DNA from: Actinomycetota bacterium
GTDB taxonomy: Bacteria; Actinomycetota; Acidimicrobiia; IMCC26256; PALSA-610
Direction of reading: 5' to 3'
NCBI GenBank assembly: GCA_005772765.1
Contig: SXIR01000099.1
Location: forward strand, 3,214-67,213
Length of the DNA stretch: 64,000 nucleotides
Within the stretch, counting starts at the first letter, position 1. Each line of letters begins with the position of its first letter. The translations under genes were made by a program, and so were the position numbers. Below, in pieces: positions 12 through 55,066 of this stretch. The notes beneath the pieces were generated by a model. It did no database searches, was not told the origin of the DNA, and saw nothing but the letters and a program-made list of their open reading frames with translations.

Positions 12-533
12 GTGGGCTGTCCCGTCCATCTCCGCGACCTCCGCCTCCTCACCGTGCAATTCTGGGGCTTCGACGGACGGGTCCGCTCGGGCCAGATCAT
101 CGTGCACCGACACGTCGCCAAGGACATCGTCGGCGTGTTCCGCAAGCTCCACGAAGCACGATTTCCAATGCGACGGATCGTGCTCGAAGACCACTACGCC
201 GGTGTTCGCAACGCCTCGACGCTCGCCAACAACACCAGCGGCTTCGAGTGCCGACCCGTCACCGGAGGTACCCGCTGGTCTCGGCACTCCTACGGACTCG
301 CCATCGACATCAATCCGCTCCAGAACCCGTACGTCTACGAAGACGGACGCATCACCGATCCCCGCGCCGCGCAATACCTCGACCGCACGCAATCAAAACC
401 CGGCATGATCCTCGACGGCGACGTCGTCGTCGAGGCCTTCGCCGCGATCGGCTGGCGATGGGGCGGCGACTTCGTCCAAACCCCTGACTACCAGCACTTC
501 GATCTCGACCCCGCTCGGCTCCCGCGACCCTGA
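12..533 (+). CDS. M15 family zinc peptidase (VanY / D-Ala-D-Ala carboxypeptidase-like), probably 5'-truncated by the window edge
   Basis: ORF 12..533. SRHSYGLAIDIN and DYQHF motifs are typical of M15B/VanY metal-binding sites. The frame stays open to position 1. Confidence 0.8.
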   Translation: MGCPVHLRDLRLLTVQFWGFDGRVRSGQIIVHRHVAKDIVGVFRKLHEARFPMRRIVLEDHYAGVRNASTLANNTSGFECRPVTGGTRWSRHSYGLAIDINPLQNPYVYEDGRITDPRAAQYLDRTQSKPGMILDGDVVVEAFAAIGWRWGGDFVQTPDYQHFDLDPARLPRP

Positions 534-704
534 GGCTCCGCCTTCCCCGCGCTCCGCTCGCGCCCGACGGACAGGACCTCGACCCCGCTCGGCTCCCGCG
601 ACCCTGAGGCTCCGCCTTCCCCGCGCTCGCCTCGCGCCCAACGGGCAGGACCTCGACCCCGCTCGGCTCCCGCGACCCTGAGGCTCCGCCTTCCCGCGCT
701 CGCC
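504..704. repeat. 74-bp tandem repeat, about 2.7 copies (copies start at 504, 578, 652)
   Basis: Direct reading. CTCGACCCCGCTCGGCTCCCGCGACCCTGAGGCTCCGCCTTCC(C)CGCGCTC recurs three times. Copy 1 is the last 10 codons plus TGA of the peptidase gene. Confidence 0.9.
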
Positions 705-706
705 GG

Positions 707-1354
707 TCAGCTCATGAAGGCGGTCGGGACGCTGATGCCGAGCGATTCGTGGCGCAAGGTCGCGATTCGGCGACCGGGTTGCACCGCGTCGCGGGCCGAG
801 CCGCACGCGTCACCCAACGTCGCGACACAGCGGTCGAGGTCCTCCACCGTGAACGCGAGCCCCCAGAACGCGGCGGGCCGGTCGCGCCGTTCGGGCCGAT
901 CCGGCGGGGTCGGTGGACCGACGACCTCGACGATCACCTCACCCGCCCGCAAGAACACCTGCCGCATCGGCATCGATTCGCTGCCCCCGACGCGCTCGCG
1001 GCGCGGCTCGCACCCCACCTCGACGAACGCGCCGATCGTGCGGTCGATGTCGGGCGTCGCCACGACGACATGGTCGAGCACTGTCGTCGAGTTCGGATGA
1101 TCGGGCGCGCGATCGATCAGAACCGTCGACGGATCGCAGACCAACTCGCCCGGGAGACCATCGATCGTGCCTCCGGCAACACCGTCGATGCGCCACGAAC
1201 GAATCCCTCGGACACCGTCCGCACCAACGAACCGGAACCGCACCGTCGAAACCTGTGCGCATCCGTTCGCGTCGACCGCAAACCCCGCCTGGCGCCATGC
1301 CTCGGGTTCGTCGCCGACCACCAACTCGACGATGCGCAACCGGGCGCCGCTCAT
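707..1354 (-). CDS. VOC / glyoxalase-family protein
   Basis: Internal ATG (residue 114 of ORF 707..1693) overlaps the upstream stop as ATGA. Sequence pattern VLDHVVVATPDIDRTIGAF...FWGLAFTVEDLD is typical of the glyoxalase/VOC fold. Confidence 0.75.
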   Translation of the reverse strand: MSGARLRIVELVVGDEPEAWRQAGFAVDANGCAQVSTVRFRFVGADGVRGIRSWRIDGVAGGTIDGLPGELVCDPSTVLIDRAPDHPNSTTVLDHVVVATPDIDRTIGAFVEVGCEPRRERVGGSESMPMRQVFLRAGEVIVEVVGPPTPPDRPERRDRPAAFWGLAFTVEDLDRCVATLGDACGSARDAVQPGRRIATLRHESLGISVPTAFMS

Positions 1355-2187
1355 GCGATCAACTGGGCATACTCGTCGAGTTGCGCAAGCACGACGTCGC
1401 GGCCGCCACCGTGGACACGCAACACGATCTCGTCGATCCCGATCGACTCGTAGTAATCGAGCTTTCCTGGGTCGGGCAGCGTCCCGAACGGCACGATCCG
1501 CATTTGCTCGAAGTCGCGGCCGACCTCGTCGCACGCGCGTTGGAGATCCGGCAACGCCTTGCGCACTCCCGCTCCACCGATCGGGAACCAGCCGTCGCAG
1601 TACTCGGCGATGTGCGCGAACATCTTCGGACCAGCCGCTCCGCCGAGCAGCACGGGCGGTCCGCCTGCGCGCGCCGGTTTCGGCCACGACCAACTCGGCG
1701 CAAGTTCGACGAACTCGCCGTGAAACTCAGCCACGTCATCGCGCCACAGTCGCTGCATCGCCAACACCCGCTCTCGCACAACTGCTCGACGCTGCGGCAT
1801 CGTGACGTGATGATGCGCGAGTTCGTCTTCGTTCCACCCGAAGCCGATGCCACAGACGAATCGACCGTCGCTGACCGCGTCGAGCGTTGCAATCGCCTTC
1901 GCGGTCACGATCGGGTCGCGTTGGGCCGGCAACAAGATGCCCGTCCCGAGTTCGATGCGTTCGGTCACCGCGGCCATGGTCGCGAGCGCAACCAGCGGGT
2001 CGAGCGTGCGCTTGTACTCTTCGGCGAGTTCGGCATCGCCCGTCGGCGGCGGCGTGCGTCGGCTGACCGGAATGTGGGTGTGTTCGGGCAGGTAGATCGA
2101 CGCCAGGCCGCGGGACTCGACGGCACGGGCGAACTCGACCGGACCCAGCGTCTGGTCGGTGGTGAACATCGTGACGCCGTAGCGCAC
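1351..2187 (-). CDS. LLM-class (luciferase-like) F420-dependent oxidoreductase
   Basis: GTG at 2187 is preceded by AAGGGAG. Typical LLM sequence (YLPEHTHIP..., GIGFGWNEDE..., DGWFPIG). Confidence 0.85.
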   Translation of the reverse strand: MRYGVTMFTTDQTLGPVEFARAVESRGLASIYLPEHTHIPVSRRTPPPTGDAELAEEYKRTLDPLVALATMAAVTERIELGTGILLPAQRDPIVTAKAIATLDAVSDGRFVCGIGFGWNEDELAHHHVTMPQRRAVVRERVLAMQRLWRDDVAEFHGEFVELAPSWSWPKPARAGGPPVLLGGAAGPKMFAHIAEYCDGWFPIGGAGVRKALPDLQRACDEVGRDFEQMRIVPFGTLPDPGKLDYYESIGIDEIVLRVHGGGRDVVLAQLDEYAQLIA

Positions 2188-6582: not shown

Positions 6583-7455
6583 CTACCGATGGTCGCGTTG
6601 CACGCGCTCGGGCACGCCCTTGAGGTCCCGCACGACCCCGACCCACGACAGCGCCTTCAAGATGTAGAAGGTCGTGTCGATCTGCCACCAACGAAAACCC
6701 TGTCGGGCGCTGGCCTGGAAATGGTGGTGGTTGTTATGCCAACCCTCGCCGCCGGTGAGGATCGCAACGAACCAGTTGTTCCGGCTGGTGTCGGTCGTTT
6801 CGTAACGTCGACGTCCGACGAGGTGCGCGACCGAGTTGACCATGAACGTGCAATGCCACAACAACACCGTCGACGCGAAGAAACCCCACACCAGACCGCT
6901 CCAACCCCCGAGGAGGAAGCTGGCAACGCCGAGCGACCACGGGCCGACCCAGTCGTGCCGGTTGAGCCAACGAAGCTCGGGGAACTTGGCGAAATCCTTG
7001 ATGCCATCAAGGTCGGTCGGACCGAACTCGGTCGAGATGACCCAACCGACGTGGCTCCAGAACACCCCATGTTTCGGCGAGTGCACGTCGCCGTCGGTGT
7101 CGCTCTCACGGTGGTGGCGGCGATGGTGCGACGCCCACCACAGGGGACCTTTCTGCGTGGCTGTCACCCCACCGAATGCCAGCAAGAACTGGAACACTCG
7201 ACCGGTCTTGAACGCGCGGTGCGCAAAGTAACGGTGGTACCCAGCGGTGATGCAGAACATTCTCGCGAAATACGACACGCCGAAGATCACCCAAGCGGTC
7301 GTGCTGATCCCGGTCACGAACGCCAGCAGCGGCACGAAGTGCAGGGCCAGAAACGGGATCGACGATCGCCAGGCGATCGGATACGGCGGTCCCGATCGTT
7401 GCTGCGCGGTGCGGGGATCGTCGTCGGTCGCGAGGGATGCGGCGGTCGCAGTCAC
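6583..7455 (-). CDS. Membrane acyl-CoA (stearoyl-CoA delta-9 type) fatty acid desaturase
   Basis: C-terminal 290 codons of the 952-aa ORF 6583..9441. Three His boxes: HRYFAH, HHRRHH, HNNHHH. GTG start at 7455. Confidence 0.85.
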   Translation of the reverse strand: MTATAASLATDDDPRTAQQRSGPPYPIAWRSSIPFLALHFVPLLAFVTGISTTAWVIFGVSYFARMFCITAGYHRYFAHRAFKTGRVFQFLLAFGGVTATQKGPLWWASHHRRHHRESDTDGDVHSPKHGVFWSHVGWVISTEFGPTDLDGIKDFAKFPELRWLNRHDWVGPWSLGVASFLLGGWSGLVWGFFASTVLLWHCTFMVNSVAHLVGRRRYETTDTSRNNWFVAILTGGEGWHNNHHHFQASARQGFRWWQIDTTFYILKALSWVGVVRDLKGVPERVQRDHR

Positions 7456-8463: not shown

Positions 8464-9405
8464 ATGGGGATGCTCGACGGCAAGGTCGCGATCGTGACCG
8501 GCGCAGGAAACGGCGTGGGCCGGGGCGAGGCGGTCATGCTCGCCGATCATGGCGCGAAGGTGGTCGTGAACGACCTCGGGGGCAGTGTCACCGGCGGTGA
8601 CGGCCCGGCCGACCAGCGCGCCGCCGACGCGGTCGTCGACGTGATCAAGGCCCGCGGCGGCGAGGCCGTCGCGAATTACGACAGCGTGGCCGACTTCGAC
8701 GGTGCCGCGAGCATCGTCGCGACGGCCATCGATGCGTTCGGCCGCCTCTACGTGCTGGTCAACACCGCCGGCGTGTTGCGCGACAAAATGATGTTCTCGA
8801 TGTCGCCCGAGGACTTCGACACGGTCGTTCGGGTCCACATGTACGGCACGTTCAACACGATGCGGCACGCGTCGGAGTACTGGCGCAACGAGAGCAAGGA
8901 AGGTCGCCAGCCGCGGGCGTCGATCATCAACACCGTGTCGAGCGCCGGGTTGCAAGGCCAGGCCAGCCAGATCAACTACGGCGCCGCCAAGGCGGGGGTC
9001 GCGGCAATGACCATCATCGCGAGCCTCGAACTCGCACGGTACGGCGTGCGAGCCAACTGCGTCGGTCCGGGCGGGTTCACCCGCATGGTTGCGCAGGCGA
9101 TGAAGGACATCGAAGTCAAACACCCCGAGGAGTACACCGAGTTCAACAACATGAACCCCGGCAACTCGGCGCCGGCTGTCGTGTACCTGGCGTCGGACGA
9201 CAGCCTTCACGTCACCGGCCAGGTGCTTCGACTCGTCGGTAACAACCTCGCGGTCTACCAGCCGTGGGAGATGGGCGAACAGTTCTTCGCCAAGGACAAG
9301 GAAGGCAATCCGACGCAGTGGAATCCGGCCGACATCGGCCGCACTCTCAACCGCTATCACTTCCGCTCGCAGAACCCGGGCATCGACGCTCAGCGACGCG
9401 CGTAG
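8464..9405 (+). CDS. SDR family oxidoreductase (paralog of 2281..3186)
   Basis: RBS GGAGG. TGAGNGVG, YGAAK motifs. N-terminal sequence is similar to the 2281 gene. Confidence 0.9.
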   Translation: MGMLDGKVAIVTGAGNGVGRGEAVMLADHGAKVVVNDLGGSVTGGDGPADQRAADAVVDVIKARGGEAVANYDSVADFDGAASIVATAIDAFGRLYVLVNTAGVLRDKMMFSMSPEDFDTVVRVHMYGTFNTMRHASEYWRNESKEGRQPRASIINTVSSAGLQGQASQINYGAAKAGVAAMTIIASLELARYGVRANCVGPGGFTRMVAQAMKDIEVKHPEEYTEFNNMNPGNSAPAVVYLASDDSLHVTGQVLRLVGNNLAVYQPWEMGEQFFAKDKEGNPTQWNPADIGRTLNRYHFRSQNPGIDAQRRA

Positions 9406-10556: not shown

Positions 10557-11709
10557 GCCGACGCGCCCACCCGATCGCGGGGCGTTCGATCGCGAAGTAC
10601 GACACCGTCGACACTGCGATCGTGATCACGAAGCCCTGCGTCGCCATCCACCACGCTGCGCCGGGTCCGCTCACCCCTTCCCAGTCGAACTGGTACAGCA
10701 CGAGCAAGTGCCAGAGATAGAACGAGTAGCTGATCCGCCCGAGGGCCGCCACTGGCTGGAGGCCGGCGACTCGACTCACCGGACCAGGAGTCGAGAGCAC
10801 GACGGCACCGACCACCACCACCGCGACGACCGCCTGCCAGATCGCTTGCGTGACCTGCTCGCCAGGCGGCGGCAGACTTCCGAACACGACATAGGCACTT
10901 TTCGAGACAAACCGCGACATCGCGACGAACGCAACGCCGGCCGCGACCCAGGCGATCGCTGCGGTGCGCGGTCCAACATCGCGCGGCATCGCAGGCGCAG
11001 CCACCAGCGCCGCGAGCGCCATCCCGGGACCCAAGGTCATCAGCGCGGCCGGCACGAAGCGCCCAAAGTCGACGAACATCACGTGGTACCACTCGGCGAA
11101 CAGCCCGACCGCCGTTACTCCTGCGCACACGAGCAGCGCGTTACGAAGCTTCGGCCGAACGACACGGAACGCGACGGTCGTCAGCAGCGGGAGGAACACG
11201 TAGAAGGATGCTTCGACGCTGAGTGTCCACGACGAATGCGCCGGGTCGTAGAACCACGTGTGGAGGAGCGTCGCCCACTGCACGAACCGCAATGCGTCGT
11301 CGGGCTGATAGTCGGTTCCTTCGAGAAACCAGAACTGATCACCCCACGCGACCGCAATGACCAAGAACGCAATCCACGCCGGGTAGATACGCAACGACCG
11401 TCGAATCGCGAACGCTCGCAGCGACGGACCCGGCTCGCCGGCGAACCACGCGGCGAAGAACGGCCGCGCCAACAAGAACCCCGACAACACGAAGAAGATC
11501 TCGACGCCGATGTCGAGGTTGCGTCCGTAGTACTCGAACTCGATCGGACCGTCGAAATCGGCAACCATCGGTGCCAGCACGAGCAGGTGGTAGAGGAACA
11601 CAGACACCGCCGCGATGGCACGCAGCCCGTCGAGCGCGTCGTTGCGCGCACGCGCGGCCACGTCGGTCGACGGCGACACCACGACTCGATTCGAACGTTG
11701 CCTCGACAC
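10498..11709 (-). CDS. Integral membrane acyltransferase (acyltransferase-3 / OafA-like family)
   Basis: ALDGLRAIAAVSVFLYH N-terminal motif and about 10 predicted TM segments. The 3' end overlaps the thiolase gene by 59 bp. Confidence 0.8.
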   Translation of the reverse strand: MSRQRSNRVVVSPSTDVAARARNDALDGLRAIAAVSVFLYHLLVLAPMVADFDGPIEFEYYGRNLDIGVEIFFVLSGFLLARPFFAAWFAGEPGPSLRAFAIRRSLRIYPAWIAFLVIAVAWGDQFWFLEGTDYQPDDALRFVQWATLLHTWFYDPAHSSWTLSVEASFYVFLPLLTTVAFRVVRPKLRNALLVCAGVTAVGLFAEWYHVMFVDFGRFVPAALMTLGPGMALAALVAAPAMPRDVGPRTAAIAWVAAGVAFVAMSRFVSKSAYVVFGSLPPPGEQVTQAIWQAVVAVVVVGAVVLSTPGPVSRVAGLQPVAALGRISYSFYLWHLLVLYQFDWEGVSGPGAAWWMATQGFVITIAVSTVSYFAIERPAIGWARRLTAAPGSQSQPNSTNLPSR

Positions 11710-11753
11710 TCCCGAATCCTACGAACGTTGCCGAACCGCGGTGGGCTTTGCGC

Positions 11754-12380
11754 TCACGGCGTGAACGCGCCCGCTCCGAAGTACCCGTTCTGAACGATCC
11801 GTGCCACGGTCCGGGCGTCGCCGGGCCGGGTCGGGTCGCGGCCGGCGTAATACGCGCTGCGCTCGAGCAACGCCATCAACGACCCCACGGTTGCGGCATC
11901 GTGCGGACGACCCTCCGCTCGCAGCCGACCGGCGAATGCGGCCGCGATGTGACGAAACGCGACGACACCGAGACGGTTGATCTCACGGTCGGCTACGGCG
12001 TTCTCCATCCAGGCGCGGATCACCGGTCCGTAGCGCGCGTAGATGGCAAAGAACTGCTCGACGCATTCGTCGATCGGCGCCACGGACTCGGCATCGGCGA
12101 TCGTCGCCGCCAACGCTTCGTACGCCTGGGCGCACTCGATTGCCAACGCCCCGAGCAGGTCTTCCTTGTTCGTGAAGTACAGGTAGAAGGTGCCGTGCGA
12201 CGCACGCGCTCGGCGCACGATGTCGTCCACTCTCGCCGCGTGATACCCACGATCGGCAAAGACCGCGAGGCCCGCGTTCGCCAACCGGGCACGCGTGCGC
12301 CGACCCTGTGCCCGCAGCGCCCGCTGCTGGGCTGGCTTGTACGCTTCGACCACCCGCGCTCCCGACCCCGAGGCCACCAT
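11754..12380 (-). CDS. TetR/AcrR family transcriptional regulator
   Basis: HTH region RVDDIVRRARASHGTFYLYFTNKEDLL. Alternative GTG start at 12395. Confidence 0.85.
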   Translation of the reverse strand: MVASGSGARVVEAYKPAQQRALRAQGRRTRARLANAGLAVFADRGYHAARVDDIVRRARASHGTFYLYFTNKEDLLGALAIECAQAYEALAATIADAESVAPIDECVEQFFAIYARYGPVIRAWMENAVADREINRLGVVAFRHIAAAFAGRLRAEGRPHDAATVGSLMALLERSAYYAGRDPTRPGDARTVARIVQNGYFGAGAFTP

Positions 12381-15036: not shown

Positions 15037-15104
15037 ACGGTGCCGAAAACTAGACGGTGCCGAAAACTAGACGGTGCCGACTACTAGACAGTGCCGACGA
15101 CGAA
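15037..15104. repeat. 17-bp tandem repeat x4 overlapping the stop codon of the minus-strand gene
   Basis: ACGGTGCCGAAAACTAG occurs twice identically (15037, 15054), then ACGGTGCCGACTACTAG (15071), then ACAGTGCCGACGACGAA (15088). Confidence 0.9.
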
Positions 15105-15839
15105 CTCGAAGAAGAGCCAGATCACTCCGAGCAACGCGAGACCGGTGTAGATCGCGTTGGTGTGCGTGTCGTAGATGATGTTGGTACCACCGGGGTCGCG
15201 TCCACCGATCGCACCGAGCGCATTGGCTTCCATCAGCACGGCGACCCCGAGGATGATCAACCAGAACAGCAGCCGAACGCCGCCACCCGGAAGTTCGAAG
15301 CCGCTGCTGAAGAACAGACCGCCGGTGCCGCCGCCGACCATCGCCGGAATCACGAACAGCGAAAAGATCGTGTTCTGGCGGCTCGCCATGGCGGCCTTGC
15401 GCGCCGCGACGGGAGCGTCGGGGTTCGCTTCGCCGCCAGCTTGGACGTTACGAGCGTTGGCGATCACGGTCTGCTGGTTCGGCCAGATGACCATCCAGAC
15501 GTTGTAGGCCATGATGAACGCGAAGAGGATCGCGGCGGCAAGCACCATGCCGCCGGGCTTCTGGAAGTAGTCGCCGTCGTACAGCATCCCGTCGGCGCCG
15601 TCGATCCCGATGACGAGCAGGCCCGTGCCGAGGGTTGCGAGTGCGGCGTGGCGGAACCAGAACAGACCCCGCCACGTCAGCTTGTCGAAGGCGTTGTTCC
15701 GGGCAGCCGGGTCCATCTCGGCGTAGGCCGGGGTCTGGATGAGGTTGAAGAACCACAAGAGGCCCATCCACATCACCGCTGCGATCACGTGCGCAATCCG
15801 CAGCGCGCCGTTCAATCCTTCTTCGGAAAACAATCGCAT
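15084..15839 (-). CDS. Integral membrane protein, urate-hydroxylase PuuD N-terminal-domain-like
   Basis: ATG at 15839 preceded by GGGAG. Multi-TM. The HVIAAVMWMGLLWFFN motif resembles PuuD-type membrane domains; the functional call is tentative. Confidence 0.6.
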   Translation of the reverse strand: MRLFSEEGLNGALRIAHVIAAVMWMGLLWFFNLIQTPAYAEMDPAARNNAFDKLTWRGLFWFRHAALATLGTGLLVIGIDGADGMLYDGDYFQKPGGMVLAAAILFAFIMAYNVWMVIWPNQQTVIANARNVQAGGEANPDAPVAARKAAMASRQNTIFSLFVIPAMVGGGTGGLFFSSGFELPGGGVRLLFWLIILGVAVLMEANALGAIGGRDPGGTNIIYDTHTNAIYTGLALLGVIWLFFEFVVGTV

Positions 15840-15896
15840 GAGAACTCCCGTGTACCCGATCGAATGGCGGGAACGTACCAAACCACGACCGTTCGG

Positions 15897-26434: not shown

Positions 26435-26464
26435 GTCGTCGAGCGTCGTCGAGCGTCGTCGAGC
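26435..26464. repeat. 10-bp tandem repeat GTCGTCGAGC x3 in a divergent promoter region
   Basis: Direct reading. Lies between the ALDH start (26415, minus) and the Ppx start (26511, plus). Confidence 0.85.
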
Positions 26465-35665: not shown

Positions 35666-35754
35666 GGGCGGACGCTCGCGAACACGATGTGGACGGGTTG
35701 GCGATCTGCATTCGATGTTTGTAGCCGAGACTGGTTGCTCACGTGCGACCACGA

Positions 35755-35796
35755 GTCCGTCGAGAATTGTCCGTCGAGAATTGTCCGTCGAGAACC
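35755..35796. repeat. 14-bp tandem repeat x3 (GTCCGTCGAGAATT x2, GTCCGTCGAGAACC)
   Basis: Direct reading. Lies 90-130 nt upstream of the acyl-CoA synthetase start, downstream of the ACAD stop. Confidence 0.85.
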
Positions 35797-35888: not shown

Positions 35889-36797
35889 TCAGGCCAGGGT
35901 GGCCGCGACTTGGTCGAAGTGCTGTTCGTGGGACCCGAAGTGGGTGTCGAGCACCCACGCCCGCTTGAGCCAGAGGTGAACGTCGACCTCCCACGTGTAC
36001 CCCATGCCGCCGTGCACTTGGGTCGCGTCTTTGCCGTTGCGGATCGCCGCTTCGCCGGCCAGCGCCTTGGCGACGCTGATCGATCGCCGCAACCCGGGCA
36101 CATCCGTCGCGTCGAGATGCGCGCCGGCCTGGTACACCGCGGCGCGAGCGACTTCGGTCCGCACGGCCATGTCGGCAAGAAGATGTTTGATCGCTTGGAA
36201 TCCACCAATCGGGCGATCGAACTGTTGGCGTTCGAGCGCGTACGCGACCGACGTCGTCGTGAGGCGCTGCGCGATCCCCAGACACAACGCCGCGGTCAAC
36301 ACCGCGCCCCGATCGCGCCACGACTGCGCGTCGACGTTCGCGAGCGGCGAACCCGTCGGCATCGCCGAGAGACGCCAGACCGGCGAAAGCGGATCGAGCG
36401 GCCAGTCGAGTTCGACCGCGCCTGCAAGCAACGAAGACGCAGGGTCGGCCGTCACGGAGTCGAGACCGAGCACAAGAACTCGGTCGAGCCGATCCAGGTG
36501 CTCGACGATCGGCGCCGCGTCGTGGTCGATGGCCGCGGCCACCGAGCCGTCGCCGAGGAGGAACGACGCGACGATCGGGCCTGGCACGCAGAACTCGCCC
36601 AATTGTTCGAACACGACGGTCGCGTCCGCCCACGAGAACCCGTCGGCGATCAGGCTGAACACGCCCGCGTCGGCGAGTTCGGTGAACATTGCTCGATCGA
36701 AACCCTCGCGGATCCGTTCGGGACCAAACCGTCCGTCGAGCAGCGCACGGATCCCATCGCGCAGCGCGATCTGGTCGTCGTCAAGGTCGAGATTCAT
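35889..36797 (-). CDS. Acyl-CoA dehydrogenase family protein (short, beta-subunit-like)
   Basis: QFDRPIGGFQAIKH and GGMGYTWEVDVHLWLKR motifs. 302 aa. Confidence 0.85.
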   Translation of the reverse strand: MNLDLDDDQIALRDGIRALLDGRFGPERIREGFDRAMFTELADAGVFSLIADGFSWADATVVFEQLGEFCVPGPIVASFLLGDGSVAAAIDHDAAPIVEHLDRLDRVLVLGLDSVTADPASSLLAGAVELDWPLDPLSPVWRLSAMPTGSPLANVDAQSWRDRGAVLTAALCLGIAQRLTTTSVAYALERQQFDRPIGGFQAIKHLLADMAVRTEVARAAVYQAGAHLDATDVPGLRRSISVAKALAGEAAIRNGKDATQVHGGMGYTWEVDVHLWLKRAWVLDTHFGSHEQHFDQVAATLA

Positions 36798-36834
36798 GGC
36801 AGGTCGACAGTCATGGGCGATCGAGGTTCATGGC

Positions 36835-38010
36835 TCAGCGAGGCTCTCGGGGCAGTCCGAGCACTCGCTCGGAGATGATGTTGCGTTGGATCTGGCTCGC
36901 GCCCGCTGCGATCGTGAGCGACTGGGTCCGTAAACGCTCCTCCACGAGCTCGTTGCCCGCGATCGATAGCGCCTCGCGTTCGAGCACGCGGAGGCACAAC
37001 TCACCGAATCGCTGCCGCGCCTCGCTGTACGCGAGCTTGATCATCATGGCGCCGGGTCCGGGGACTCCGCGCTCCGACTGGCTCACGTTGCGCTTCGTCA
37101 ACGACCACAGCGCGTCGAAGTCGGCGAGGCTACGGCCGAGCTCGCGTCGCGCAACCGGGTCGTGCACCAACGCAGCGAGATCGCCGCAGAGCCGCAATGA
37201 GTCGATGAGTTCGCTCACGAATGCGGTGCCGCGCTCGTACTTGAGCGTGACGTTCGTGACGCGCCAGCCATCGTTCTCGGCCCCGACCCGGTTTGTGACC
37301 GGAACCCGCACGTCGGTGAGAAACACTTCGCAGAACTCCGAGCTACCCAGCGTGGTCTTGATGGGACGAATCTCGATCCCGGGAAGGTCCATCGGCAGAA
37401 TCAGCCACGAGATGCCGCGGTGCTTCGAGGCCTCGGGATCGGTTCGCACCAAGAACTCGCCGACGTCGGCAATGTGCCCGAAGCTGCACCAGATCTTCTG
37501 CCCGTTCAAGACATAGTCGTCGCCGTCGCGCTCGGCGCGCGTCCGTAACGCCGCGAGGTCGCTGCCCGCATTCGGCTCACTGAACCCCTGGCACCACACC
37601 TCGTCGCCCGCGAGGATGCGGGGCAGGTGGGTGGCCTTCTGCTCCGGCGTACCTTCCTCGACGAGGGTCGGTCCGGCGTGCAAGGTCCCGACGAAGTTGA
37701 CCCCGACGTAGGGCGCCTTCGCCTTGGTCGTTTCCTCGAAGAAGATCAGTTGCTCGGTCGGCGTTCGGTCGGCTCCGCCGTACTCCTTCGGCCAGTTCAA
37801 TCCGGCGTAGCCACCATCGAAGAGCCGCTTTTGCCAGTCGGTGTCGAACCGTCGACGCGCGGGCCAATCCTCGCGGTGCGGCATCTCGGGCAACTTCGGC
37901 AGTTCGCGAACGAGCCACTCGGCGAGTTCGGACCGAAACGCTTCGTCGGCGTCGGAGGCGCGCAGCTCCACGGACGGGAGGCTAACGACCGGCCCCTGGG
38001 GCGGCCGCAT
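36835..38010 (-). CDS. Acyl-CoA dehydrogenase family protein (alpha-subunit-like)
   Basis: CQGFSEPNAGSDLA and GASQIQRNIISERVLGLP motifs. ATG 38010 overlaps the upstream gene by 29 bp. An alternative GTG start is at 37971. Confidence 0.85.
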   Translation of the reverse strand: MRPPQGPVVSLPSVELRASDADEAFRSELAEWLVRELPKLPEMPHREDWPARRRFDTDWQKRLFDGGYAGLNWPKEYGGADRTPTEQLIFFEETTKAKAPYVGVNFVGTLHAGPTLVEEGTPEQKATHLPRILAGDEVWCQGFSEPNAGSDLAALRTRAERDGDDYVLNGQKIWCSFGHIADVGEFLVRTDPEASKHRGISWLILPMDLPGIEIRPIKTTLGSSEFCEVFLTDVRVPVTNRVGAENDGWRVTNVTLKYERGTAFVSELIDSLRLCGDLAALVHDPVARRELGRSLADFDALWSLTKRNVSQSERGVPGPGAMMIKLAYSEARQRFGELCLRVLEREALSIAGNELVEERLRTQSLTIAAGASQIQRNIISERVLGLPREPR

Positions 38011-50659: not shown

Positions 50660-51571
50660 TCAGATCGCCGCGAACGCGTCGACGACGTCCCGCACGAATC
50701 GTTCGAGCGCCGTCGCGTCCTTGGCGTGGCGGCCGAGGCCGACTGCCGCTTCGGTCACCCCCAGATCGGCAAGGTGCGTGCTCGCAGACCGAGTGGCCTC
50801 GATGTCGACGTGGCCATCGTCGGTCGTGACGACCTTCGCGCTCGCACGGACCCGCAGCGTCGCGGGATCGCGACCTGCGGCCGAAAACGCGGCGCGGAGC
50901 GCGTCGATGCCGTCGCGTAGTTGTTCGACACTCGTCGTGTGGATCGGCAACCAGCCCGCGCCGAGCGCAGCGATGCGGGCAACGTGGGCGGGTGTTGCGG
51001 CCATGCCGTAGTGCAGCGGAATCCCGGTGATCGGCGAGCACTGCACGGGTTGTGGCAGGCACCAGGTCGGCCCGAACGCCACCGTCGCCGATGCGAACGA
51101 CACCGGTGCGGTTTGGGTCCACAGCGCGGCACAGGCGCGCAGACCATCGTCGAGCAGATCCCAGCGACGTGACCAATCGAGTCCACACGCGGCGTACTCC
51201 TCGCGCTGCCACCCGGGGCCGACGCCGAGATCGAGACGACCGCGGCTGATCTGGTCGAGCGTCGCGCAGACCTTGGCGAGCAGCGCCGGTGGCCGCAGGG
51301 GCGTGAGGACGATGCCTGTCCCGAGCCGGACCCGTTCGGTCACCGCGGCAATCGCGCTCAGCAGCGTCAGGGGCTCGGGCCAAGGTTCGTCGGGACCGTA
51401 CGGAAAGGTTCCGAAGGGGTAGCGATCGGTCCGTTCGCCCATGACCACGTGGTCGGCCAGTACGAGCGTCGTCGCCCCAGCGGCGTCGAGCACACGCGCC
51501 GCGTCGAGCACGCGCCCCAAGTCGTTGTCGAACAGCCGACTGAACCCTGACACCGTCACGCTGACCTGCAC
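50660..51571 (-). CDS. LLM-class F420-dependent oxidoreductase
   Basis: GTG at 51571 preceded by GAGGAGGA. LGTGIVLTPLR and LDLGVGPGWQREEY motifs. Confidence 0.85.
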   Translation of the reverse strand: MQVSVTVSGFSRLFDNDLGRVLDAARVLDAAGATTLVLADHVVMGERTDRYPFGTFPYGPDEPWPEPLTLLSAIAAVTERVRLGTGIVLTPLRPPALLAKVCATLDQISRGRLDLGVGPGWQREEYAACGLDWSRRWDLLDDGLRACAALWTQTAPVSFASATVAFGPTWCLPQPVQCSPITGIPLHYGMAATPAHVARIAALGAGWLPIHTTSVEQLRDGIDALRAAFSAAGRDPATLRVRASAKVVTTDDGHVDIEATRSASTHLADLGVTEAAVGLGRHAKDATALERFVRDVVDAFAAI

Positions 51572-51586
51572 CTTGGATTCCTCCTC

Positions 51587-51650
51587 GTCGTCGATCTATT
51601 GGGTCGTCGATCTATTGGGTCGTCGATTCATTGGGTCATCGATTCATTGG
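51587..51650. repeat. 16-bp tandem repeat x4 spanning the Zn-ADH stop codon to the next gene's RBS
   Basis: GTCGTCGATCTATTGG x2 (51587, 51603), GTCGTCGATTCATTGG (51619), GTCATCGATTCATTGG (51635). Confidence 0.9.
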
Positions 51651-52733
51651 GACCACGACGGCGTGGAGCGGCGGGGTACCGCGTTCGCCGGCCATCGTTT
51701 CGAGCAAGTCCGTGACCCGGTCGGCCGCCAGGGGTTCGACGCGACGATCGATATCGGTCCACGGGAACTGCCGGTCGGTCAACAGCGAGAACGCCGATTG
51801 GTACGCCGCGGTGTCGACACCCAGGGCGCCGATGACCCGCAGTTCCTTGAACACGACATGATCGACGAGAAACTCGGGAACCGCACTCCCGCGCGTCCCG
51901 GCGATTACGACCGTCCCGCCGGGACGGGCGAGCGCAATCGCTTGCGCGACCGCCTGGGGCGCCTTGGCCGTGACGTCGACGACGACGTCGGCGAGCCGCC
52001 CACCCGTCGAGTCACGCAACGCCACAACGGGATCGTCGCGCGTCACGTCGACCGTGAGGTCGGCTCCGAATCGGCGGGCCATGGCCAGGCGGGGCGCGTC
52101 GCGTTCGCCCGCGCCCGTCACCATGACGGTTGCTGCGCCAGCGGTGATGGCGGCGGCGCACGCGGCGATACCGCGGATTCCGGGGCCGAGGACGGCGACG
52201 ACGTCGCCGGGTCGCGTGCCTGGCACCGTCACGCCCCACCGAACTCCGGCGCCAACCGGATTGAACAGCGTTGCCGTCACGGGATCGAGGTCGTCGGGGA
52301 CTCGCAGCAGCAGCGAGTCGGGCGCCAGGTACTGGTGCTCGGCGTAGCCGCCCCACAAACTCGGCGTGCGGTCGATATCGACGAAGCCGTACATGTCGCG
52401 CAATCCGTGTGCACGACAGCGGTTGTAGGAGCCTGCGATGCAGTCACCGCAGCGGCCGCACCGCTGAAACACCTCGACCGCGACACGATCGCCTGCCCCG
52501 ACCGACCACCGGGCCGCGGCCGATGCGCCGATCTCGTCGATCACCCCGACGGTCTCGTGTCCGGGGACGAAGGCGAATCCGCCGTTGAGTTGGCCGGTGA
52601 ACTGCTCGTGATCGGTTCCGCAGAGACCGCATGCCTCGACCTGCAGCCATCCGTCGTCGGGGTTGACGGGGCGCCGCTCGAACGACCGCTCGGCCAGCGA
52701 ACGTACGGACTCGAGTACGAGCGCGCAGGTCAT
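51636..52733 (-). CDS. Zinc-dependent alcohol dehydrogenase (MDR family)
   Basis: CGLCGTDH, GHETVG and CGRCGDC structural-zinc motifs. Confidence 0.9.
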   Translation of the reverse strand: MTCALVLESVRSLAERSFERRPVNPDDGWLQVEACGLCGTDHEQFTGQLNGGFAFVPGHETVGVIDEIGASAAARWSVGAGDRVAVEVFQRCGRCGDCIAGSYNRCRAHGLRDMYGFVDIDRTPSLWGGYAEHQYLAPDSLLLRVPDDLDPVTATLFNPVGAGVRWGVTVPGTRPGDVVAVLGPGIRGIAACAAAITAGAATVMVTGAGERDAPRLAMARRFGADLTVDVTRDDPVVALRDSTGGRLADVVVDVTAKAPQAVAQAIALARPGGTVVIAGTRGSAVPEFLVDHVVFKELRVIGALGVDTAAYQSAFSLLTDRQFPWTDIDRRVEPLAADRVTDLLETMAGERGTPPLHAVVVPMNR

Positions 52734-52740
52734 GGCTCGC

Positions 52741-53499
52741 TCAAGGGAACCGATTCGGTGCGAGGAGCGCGTCGATTCCGCCGTCGGCGAACAGCGTCGA
52801 CCCGTGGACGTACCGGGCGCCGTCGAAGAGCAGCCACGCGACGACGTCGGCGATGTCGGCGGGGTCGCCCATCCGCCCGAGCGGAATCGGCAACGCTTTG
52901 ATCAGGTCGCTGGTTGCCGGGTCGTCGAGCCCTTCTTGGAGCAGCGGCGTGAGAAACGGACCGGGCGCGACGGCGTTGATCCGCACGCCTCGCTCCCCCA
53001 ACTCCTGCACTCGCGAACGCATCCATTTCCCGATCGCGACCTTCGACGCGGCGTACGCGACTGCGGGATTCGTGTCGGCCGCGATCGCCAGTGCTGCGGT
53101 CTCGTCGCGATCGAGGCAGGCGCGCGCGAGGTCGCCGTCTGCGCCCGGGGTGAGCGTCGTCGAGTTCGAGCAGATCAGCGCGACGGCACCACCCGGCGCG
53201 ATCGACCGTTCGAGCCCTTCGACGAACGCCACCGCACCAAAGAAGTTCACGGCGATGATGCGCTCCGATGGGTGTTGCGGACCGAGTCCCGCGCACGGAA
53301 CGACGCCGGCCAGCGACGACGCTCGCTCGAGGACGCCCGCGACCGCCGCGGCGCGCCCACCCGGCGACGACAAGTCGGCCGCGATCTCGACCGAATGCAG
53401 ATCGACGGTGACGACGGTCGATCCGTCGGCCCGCAGACGCTCCGTGAGCGCTCGTCCCAGACCGCTCGCCGCGCCGCTCACCGCCAACGTGGATTGCAC
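52741..53499 (-). CDS. SDR family oxidoreductase (atypical glycine motif)
   Basis: SGAASGLG and YAASK motifs. The GTG start lies 1 nt after the upstream stop. Confidence 0.8.
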   Translation of the reverse strand: MQSTLAVSGAASGLGRALTERLRADGSTVVTVDLHSVEIAADLSSPGGRAAAVAGVLERASSLAGVVPCAGLGPQHPSERIIAVNFFGAVAFVEGLERSIAPGGAVALICSNSTTLTPGADGDLARACLDRDETAALAIAADTNPAVAYAASKVAIGKWMRSRVQELGERGVRINAVAPGPFLTPLLQEGLDDPATSDLIKALPIPLGRMGDPADIADVVAWLLFDGARYVHGSTLFADGGIDALLAPNRFP

Positions 53500-53500
53500 C

Positions 53501-55066
53501 TCACTCCCCGATCAGTTGTTTGCGCAGTTCGTGTTTCGGAACCTTGCCGCTGGGGTTGCGTGGCATCGTTTCGACGATCATCAACCGCTCGGGCGCCTTC
53601 TGGGCCATGAGTCCGGCGACGCGGCAATGGTCGAACACGTCGGCGACCGTGGGCACGTTCGCGGCGTCTTTCAACTGGATCGCCGCGACCACCATCTCGC
53701 CACGATCGACATCGGGGATGCCGAAGACGGCAACGTCAGCAACGGTGGGGTGGGTGTAGAGGCAATCCTCGACTTCCTTCGCTGACACGTTTTCGCCCTT
53801 GCGGATGATGATGTCCTTGATGCGACCGGTGATGACGAGCGTGCCATCCGCCAGGAATCGTCCGACATCTCCCGTGCGGAAGAAGCCGTCGGCAGTGAAC
53901 GCCGCGGCGTCGAGCGACGGATCGGTGTAGCCGCGCATGACCTGGTGACCCGTTGCGACGATTTCGCCCTCTTCGCCGATGGCGACCTCGTGGCCCTCGC
54001 GGTCGAGCAGTTTGATCGCGACCGACTCGGTTGGCGTGCCCTCGCCCTTGATCTTGCTCTCGTCGGCCGCGTCCATGTCGGTCTGGGTCAAGATCGGCGC
54101 TTCGGTGAGTCCGTAGCCACTGGTGATGCCGCCGACGGCACTCGGCACCACCTCGCGGATCTCGTCGTGCTGCAACGGCGGTTTCGGCGAACCGCCGCCA
54201 GGGAACGCGCGAACCGTGCGGTAGGCATCGGGATTGTCGCGGGCCTCAGCGATCAACAACTGGTGGATGGCCGGCGCGCCGTTGCCGAGCGTGACGCGGT
54301 GCCGACCGATGAGTTCGGTCGAGCGAGCGGGCGTGAATGCTTCCATCAGCACGGCAGTCGAACCCGTGAGCAACGGCGTGAACACGCCGATGATCGCTCC
54401 GCCGACGTGCGTGAACGGAAAGGCCACGATGGCGATGTCGTCTTCGACGATGTGGGTCTTCTTGCAGTAACCGATTGCGCCCTGCATCACGCTGCGGTCG
54501 GTGTGTTGCGCGCCCTTCGGGTCGCTCGTCGTGCCCGAGGTATAGAAGATCCAGCGCACCGGATCGTCGCCACGAGCGGCGAACGTCTCGGGCGCGGCCG
54601 GCAGCGCGCTCGGATCGCCTTCGGGATTGTGACGGTCGGCAACGACCGCCCGTAGTCCTGCGAACCCTGCGCCCGCGTTCTCCGAGGCGACCTGCTCCGC
54701 GAGCCCGTGGTAGTCGAAGCCGTTCCATTCGCTCGGTGTGATGAGAAACTCGGTCCCGAGCTGACGGGTGATGAAGCTGATCTCGCGTTGGCGGTAGATC
54801 GGCAACATCGGGTTCTGGATCGCGCCGAGACGACAGAGCGCTCCGACGAGGACTGCGGACTCGACCCAGGTCGGAAGCTGCCAACTCACTTGCACGCCCG
54901 CTCGGATTCCCGCTGCATACCAACCGGCCGCTGCGCGCTCGACGAGATCGCGGTACTCGGCGAACGACACCGCGCGATTGTCGGCATGCAACATGATGCG
55001 ATCGGGCGTGAGCTCCGCCCGGCGTTCGATCAACTCCCAGACTGACTTGGCATCGTCGAGCATCAC
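53501..55066 (-). CDS. AMP-dependent acyl-CoA synthetase/ligase
   Basis: FYTSGTTSDPKGA motif and C-terminal SGKVPKHELR. Confidence 0.9.
   Translation of the reverse strand: MMLDDAKSVWELIERRAELTPDRIMLHADNRAVSFAEYRDLVERAAAGWYAAGIRAGVQVSWQLPTWVESAVLVGALCRLGAIQNPMLPIYRQREISFITRQLGTEFLITPSEWNGFDYHGLAEQVASENAGAGFAGLRAVVADRHNPEGDPSALPAAPETFAARGDDPVRWIFYTSGTTSDPKGAQHTDRSVMQGAIGYCKKTHIVEDDIAIVAFPFTHVGGAIIGVFTPLLTGSTAVLMEAFTPARSTELIGRHRVTLGNGAPAIHQLLIAEARDNPDAYRTVRAFPGGGSPKPPLQHDEIREVVPSAVGGITSGYGLTEAPILTQTDMDAADESKIKGEGTPTESVAIKLLDREGHEVAIGEEGEIVATGHQVMRGYTDPSLDAAAFTADGFFRTGDVGRFLADGTLVITGRIKDIIIRKGENVSAKEVEDCLYTHPTVADVAVFGIPDVDRGEMVVAAIQLKDAANVPTVADVFDHCRVAGLMAQKAPERLMIVETMPRNPSGKVPKHELRKQLIGE

Follow-up and report, generated by a model that had tools for sequence, protein, structure and literature searches.

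The window is a 64-kb stretch of DNA (67% G+C) from an Acidimicrobiia metagenome-assembled genome, and its relatives are uncultured Acidimicrobiia/Acidimicrobiales that are likewise represented by metagenome-assembled genomes. It contains a minus-strand operon with the gene order AMP-binding enzyme, SDR, Zn-dependent alcohol dehydrogenase (ADH), and luciferase-like oxidoreductase (LLM). The features of the operon and of its last spacer are as follows.

53501-55066, minus strand: AMP-binding acyl-CoA synthetase-like gene, upstream in the operon
52741-53499, minus strand: SDR gene, upstream in the operon
51636-52733, minus strand: ADH, 365 aa (Pfam ADH_N + ADH_zinc_N)
51587-51650, minus strand: tandem array of 16 bp x 4 (sequence and TRF), identical or nearly so in contigs L001, L002, and L095
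51650-51635, minus strand: unit 1, CCAATGAATCGATGAC
51634-51619, minus strand: unit 2, CCAATGAATCGACGAC
51618-51603 and 51602-51587, minus strand: units 3 and 4, both CCAATAGATCGACGAC
51572-51586, minus strand: Shine-Dalgarno (SD) region, GAGGAGGAATCCAAG, homologous to GAGAGGAA in sister species
50660-51571, minus strand: LLM, 303 aa, GTG start, last gene of the operon (Bac_luciferase)

The other spacers in the operon are 1 nt and 7 nt, and the 64 nt between ADH and LLM is the sole long one. Both gene boundaries are supported by orthologues: the LLM start at 51571 lines up with their GTG or ATG starts, and ADH proteins share a conserved ..H(A/G)V(V/I/L/F)xP, with most of the orthologues stopping there or a few residues later. 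In the window, the ADH tail reads ..HAVVVP-MNR, and this tail and the TGA (51638-51636) fall in unit 1, which is CCA ATG AAT CGA TGA C, or the final four ADH codons plus the stop. Read on the minus strand from 51650 to 51587, the array consists of four head-to-tail units of 16 bp. Unit 4 is followed by GAGGAGGAATCCAAG and then by the GTG of the LLM gene. The SD itself (GAGGAGGA, 51586-51579) adjoins the last unit, and its GGAGG core ends 8 nt before the GTG. The spacer from stop to start is therefore made up of 49 nt of array and 15 nt of SD region.

A preliminary description of this DNA, made from the letters alone, had reported four tandem copies of a 16-bp unit that run from a stop codon to the SD of the next gene in an operon and that, with the SD, account for the whole 64-nt spacer. 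Every detail of this was accurate. TRF calls the array at 51587-51651 with a period of 16, 4.1 copies, 93% matches, and a score of 95. Among 60 simulated 64-kb windows (generated by a second-order Markov model with the second-order composition of the window), the top TRF score at periods of at least 7 was 85 and the maxima averaged 57, so the array is beyond chance.

To compare strains, we needed close relatives. A scan of GTDB genomes gave a nearest relative of at most 66% identity, and exact look-ups of the window ADH and of a 313-aa protein (8464-9405) gave no match, nor did a look-up of the cluster member P0125; close relatives were found through a protein collection. Five further contigs of the same species-level population were recovered. 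Three of these have BLAST identities to the window of 99.3-99.8%: L001 (ENA ERZ27257035) at 99.84%, L002 (GCA_005798355.1) at 99.80%, and L083 (GCA_005800135.1) at 99.27%. L001 has four units, with one substitution in the last unit, and L002 also has four units and is read through, as is the four-unit array in L095 (ENA ERZ27257034; no identity figure). L083 has a minimum of five units, because its contig stops exactly where unit 5 does. Its extra unit (CCAATGAATTGATGAC) follows unit 1 and has a private C>T substitution. A loop in the assembly graph of a four-unit template could not have produced it. The remaining contig, L096, breaks inside the array. It is a Logan contig; units 3 and 4 are the same over 32 nt, and an assembly with a short k would be expected to break there.

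Overall, four assemblies (the window, L001, L002, and L095) have four units and L083 has at least five; these are five informative alleles, and the five-unit allele is the one at a contig end. The comparison of copy number that the preliminary description had proposed thus gave four versus at least five units at 99.3% identity. The array is genuine and polymorphic, but it is not hypervariable. We rejected the explanation that it is an assembly artefact, whose probability is negligible. Two short-read contigs (L083 and L096) do end in or at the array, which is what misassembly might look like, but the window and three further contigs read through the same four units, and substitutions between the units fix their order.

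The origin of the array can be read from its sister species. Those with an ADH that is 77-80% identical keep the order SDR-ADH-LLM, but their junctions differ. In L084, the ADH ends in ..APN and is followed by a 19-nt spacer (GGATGAGAGGAACTTCAGC) and GTG; in L086, the ADH reads through and overlaps the LLM gene by 16 nt; in L087, there is a 59-nt spacer that contains a perfect hairpin with a 16-bp stem; and in L091, the spacer is 25 nt. L088-L090 encode an ADH protein identical to that of L091 but have a 154-bp tandem duplication of the ADH 3' end and the SD. The 16-bp array is absent from all of the sister-species junctions that we examined (L084, L086, L087, and L088-L091). When the array in the window is collapsed to one unit, it is homologous to these single-copy junctions and aligns collinearly with them (..A(T/C)GAA..CGATGA-GAG(G/A)GGAA..GTG), so the unit is not an inserted element but arose by duplication, in place, of part of the ancestral junction. 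The units have either TGA or CGA and either ATGAAT or ATAGAT; units 3 and 4 are the same, and the extra unit in L083 is of the TGA type. This pattern of substitutions requires several successive events.

We therefore favor the view, at odds of roughly three to one (a probability of about 0.75), that this is a small VNTR that was made in place by slippage or unequal exchange from local sequence and that is near-neutral. The final four ADH codons, the stop, and one base, which together made up 16 bp of the ancestral ADH-LLM junction, were tandemly duplicated, and the pattern of the units points to replication slippage or unequal exchange followed by stepwise re-amplification. The first copy retains the full ADH frame and its stop, and an intact SD and GTG remain after the last copy. 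As neither protein is altered, selection would not remove the array, and its copy number would drift (four, or at least five). The same process of duplication is visible elsewhere, in the loss of a unit from another array of the window (at 15037, below) in contig L093 and in the polymorphic 154-bp duplication in another species.

The latter duplication (L088 5978-6270, compared with L091 1260-1340) spans the ADH 3' end, the stop codon, and the SD. It is found in a species with a 77% identical ADH, and three contigs have it while a fourth, with an identical ADH protein, does not. In the gene tables of the L088-type contigs, the copied ADH tail is listed as an ORF of 43 aa.

Bacterial intergenic VNTRs are mini- or microsatellites that arise from slipped-strand mispairing and are used in MLVA typing. 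The array has the same features: short head-to-tail units in a number beyond chance, whole units gained or lost step by step among closely related strains, divergence of the units by point substitutions, and derivation from local single-copy sequence. It does not differ from them in kind, although it occurs in an uncultured Acidimicrobiia lineage and begins with a unit that overlaps a stop codon. The preliminary description had suggested an undescribed class of VNTR in this lineage; the array is instead an ordinary, locally made repeat, and stop-containing arrays are not significantly enriched (see below). Contingency loci, as in Haemophilus and Neisseria, usually have units of 1-8 bp, arranged in long tracts that mutate readily and turn genes on and off. 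As in those loci, the number of repeats alters the spacing of expression signals, but this array has four or five units of 16 bp, leaves the SD and the start codon untouched, and is not expected to cause switching.

The array had also been likened to mycobacterial MIRUs. MIRUs have units of 46-101 bp and, in Mycobacterium tuberculosis, form one shared sequence family over 41 loci (PMC3914561), and the ORF within a MIRU is coupled to the downstream start by a -4 overlap (PMC12548453). If the array belonged to a MIRU-like family of mobile or dispersed intergenic repeats, which insert at gene boundaries and keep coupling through an internal ORF, this would account for its place in an operon spacer, its overlap with a stop codon, and its variability. 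The M. tuberculosis MIRU-VNTR loci do share these traits, being polymorphic in copy number and lying in intra-operon spacers where they touch the flanking codons. The unit is, however, only 16 bp. Searching the 64-kb window for the unit with up to three mismatches gave only the array itself and one chance-level match, and scanning JGI metagenome contigs for two adjacent units gave only L092, an unrelated low-GC contig. The other arrays in the window have unrelated units, and the three arrays that include a stop codon are each derived from local gene-end sequence. When all three frames of the array are translated, the sole small ORF (MNRRPNRSTTQ and a stop) ends 24 nt before the GTG and has no -4 stop-start overlap with the downstream start. 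Finally, the organism is an Acidimicrobiia and not a Mycobacterium, so the mycobacterial framing does not hold. We rejected a MIRU-like or dispersed element as very improbable (16-bp unit, undispersed within the 64 kb, no coupled ORF). In the label "MIRU-like VNTR" that the array had been given, "VNTR" is correct, as copy number varies, and "MIRU-like" is not, given the short unit, its confinement to one locus of the window, its local origin, and the lack of a coupled ORF.

We also considered signals in the RNA or the DNA of the spacer. The RNA of the spacer shows no excess of structure over shuffled sequence (folding z = +0.99) and has no match in Rfam, so a structured RNA, riboswitch, or attenuator was rejected. 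An internal promoter or terminator was likewise rejected, as no promoter-like or terminator-like site was found in the spacer.

The window has six other arrays that are not inside genes:

504-704, plus strand: 74-bp x 2.7 array with the TGA of the M15 peptidase gene 12-533 (plus strand) in its units; TRF, 96% matches
12269: weak 19-bp x 1.9 array, not stop-anchored
15037-15104, minus strand: 17-bp array with the TAG of gene 15084-15881 (minus strand) in its units; TRF, polymorphic
26435-26464, no strand assigned: perfect 10-bp x 3 array lying between divergently oriented genes; TRF
35755-35794, minus strand: perfect 14-bp x 2.9 array (AATTCTCGACGGAC), wholly in a spacer, upstream of the GTG at 35752; TRF
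36784-36834, minus strand: 17-bp x 3 array whose units contain a start codon and not a stop codon; TRF, 73% matches

Two of these arrays (15037-15104 and 504-704) include stop codons, as the preliminary description had stated. The array at 15037 lies between an acyl-CoA dehydrogenase gene and the convergent gene 15084-15881, and CGACGAC is present on both of its flanks. L093, which is 99.73% identical to the window, has one unit fewer (at 7171-7200), and this 17-bp unit is the sole indel in a 20.5-kb alignment of the two. The units also differ in sequence between the window and L093 (AAAAC versus ACTAC). Across the contigs compared that are more than 99% identical to the window, the only indels are in the 16-bp and the 17-bp arrays, and these two arrays could serve as strain markers for this uncultured Acidimicrobiia population. 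The 504-704 array fills the gap between the convergent genes 12-533 (plus strand) and 707-1693 (minus strand), and the repeated piece begins 30 nt ahead of the M15 peptidase stop codon (TGA).

The array at 36784-36834 fills the spacer from the TGA of gene 36835-37971 to the ATG of the next gene at 36797. Each unit copies the start codon and the first codons (ATGAA(T/C)CTCGA..), and the two upstream copies form mini-ORFs (MNLDRP and MTVDLP, each followed by a stop) whose TGA overlaps the next ATG as ATGA. This chain of -4 overlaps is closer to the MIRU arrangement than is the array at 51587-51650. The array at 35755-35794 occupies the expected SD position of a 548-aa ORF (GTG at 35752) and is probably recent, being 100% identical. 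Short direct repeats in intergenic regions are also known from Beggiatoaceae, where one heptamer, TAACTGA, recurs at 169 loci of the genome (PMC4679880); in the window, the arrays each have a different unit that derives from local sequence.

Five of the seven non-coding arrays of the window (504, 26435, 35755, 36784, and 51587) have TCGAC or its complement in their units, as compared to 1.27 expected (post hoc P = 0.0015). Such a shared motif might suggest that the array at 51587 is a set of protein-binding direct repeats, operator or iteron-like, through which a regulator would control LLM or an internal promoter. A row of four direct repeats, evenly spaced and upstream of a gene, would suit this role, as would the short palindromes TCGA and ATCGAT inside the units. 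But the enrichment of TCGAC was not reproduced among 47 non-coding arrays of related genomes (P = 0.29), and we dropped the motif as a sign of a common mechanism or binding protein. Furthermore, sister species that share the operon lack the array, which is thus not a conserved regulatory site. No promoter-like site lies nearby, and a spacing of 16 bp would put successive sites on opposite faces of the helix. Binding by a regulator is therefore quite improbable.

The preliminary description had argued that three stop-anchored arrays out of three were hard to attribute to chance. This reflects a selection effect, as at least four other non-coding arrays in the window (12269, 26435, 35755, and 36784) are not stop-anchored. 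In the window alone, three of the seven non-coding arrays contain a stop codon, versus about one expected. We classified all TRF arrays in the window and in the related loci that had been fetched by then, excluding near-duplicates of the same locus. This census covers 1.37 Mb, mostly from other species, with rough gene calls from a codon-usage log-likelihood model. For the null model, a unit of the observed period is duplicated anywhere, and the duplication survives if it is intergenic or spans a gene end. Among the 54 non-coding arrays with scores of at least 50, 12 contain a stop codon, 7 contain only a start codon, and 35 contain neither. The 12 stop-containing arrays compare with 8.3 expected (P = 0.11), or 9 versus 7.3 without the window (P = 0.29). 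At scores of at least 70, there were 7 versus 4.1 expected (P = 0.08), or 4 versus 3.4 without the window. Overall, the enrichment of stop codons was not significant at any of three score thresholds, with or without the window. An enrichment that is specific to this lineage is still conceivable.

Stop-anchoring is expected from survivorship, because a duplication that spans a stop codon keeps the upstream protein (in copy one) and the downstream signals (after the last copy). The same selective filter is seen at work inside genes, where the period is a multiple of three for 115 arrays and is not for 23. When genomes are scanned, a stop codon in the first repeat unit thus needs no special biology, and in compact genomes, a sizeable share of the surviving arrays will look "stop-anchored" through the survival of both reading frames.

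Within the fetched loci, stop-spanning repeats are more frequent at ADH orthologues (4 of 83) than at other genes (8 of 1162; Fisher P = 0.006, or 0.02 without the window). This excess at ADH 3' ends could hint at selection or at a local hotspot. The expansions at ADH 3' ends include the 16-bp array with four or five units, the 154-bp duplication (two copies, polymorphic), the hairpin insertion in L087, and, in the ADH orthologue of L034 (4287-4331), a 23-bp x 2 duplication that spans the TAG.

If the array has a physiological effect, the only likely one is a by-product of its length: the distance from stop to start would have grown from ~16-19 nt to 64 nt (80 nt in the five-unit allele). Translational coupling is most efficient at small intergenic distances (review, PMC12548453), and termination-reinitiation needs overlaps or very short spacers (work cited in the same review). 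The longer spacer should weaken this coupling and leave the translation of LLM dependent on its own SD. LLM keeps a strong SD, with a GGAGG core close to the GTG, so it could initiate independently.

This raises the question of whether the array is an adaptive tuning knob, with selection on a copy number that sets the spacing of the ADH stop and the LLM start and so tunes or uncouples LLM translation relative to the upstream genes. The array lies exactly between the stop and the SD, its copy number is variable, and coupling is sensitive to distance. The same junction was expanded independently in other species (by the polymorphic 154-bp duplication and, in L087, by a hairpin insertion of 36 nt). 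The excess of stop-spanning arrays at ADH 3' ends fits as well, and so may the stop-spanning duplication at the ADH orthologue in L034. On the other hand, copy number is the same in four of the five alleles, a 19-nt spacer or an overlap is enough for sister species, and, with the SD intact and the RNA unstructured, any effect is probably small. We consider selected tuning unlikely. A broader version, in which the ADH-LLM junction or the ADH 3' end is a recurrent target of spacer-expanding duplications in several Acidimicrobiia that were selected to loosen or tune LLM translation, seems slightly less likely again. Nothing that we found requires copy number to tune the expression of LLM, and the array is an ordinary VNTR and probably near-neutral. 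The repeats at ADH 3' ends and the excess of TCGAC in the window leave a small probability for a hotspot or a selected tuning function. If copy number does tune LLM expression, then the array would illustrate, on a small scale and in nature, how spacer length can control translational coupling.

Three other ADH loci have features of their own. In L025 (11075-11125), the ADH orthologue has an in-frame 15-bp x 2.7 repeat, so that the protein ends in ..TPTPFTPTPFTPTRE, with TPTPF-TPTPF at the C-terminus. The perfect hairpin in L087 (2250-2285; TGAGTCGTTTGCGTGA-ATAA-TCACGCAAACGACTCA) begins with the ADH stop codon. It has no match in any other fetched locus and could be a small palindromic insertion or a signal for processing or stability. 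Lastly, the LLM downstream of ADH is split into ORFs of 133 aa and 147 aa in L085 (GCA_005772745.1; 11112-12023), while L084, a near-identical contig from ENA, has a single intact 303-aa LLM gene (11112-12023). Either this is a frameshift or there is an assembly error in one of the two contigs.
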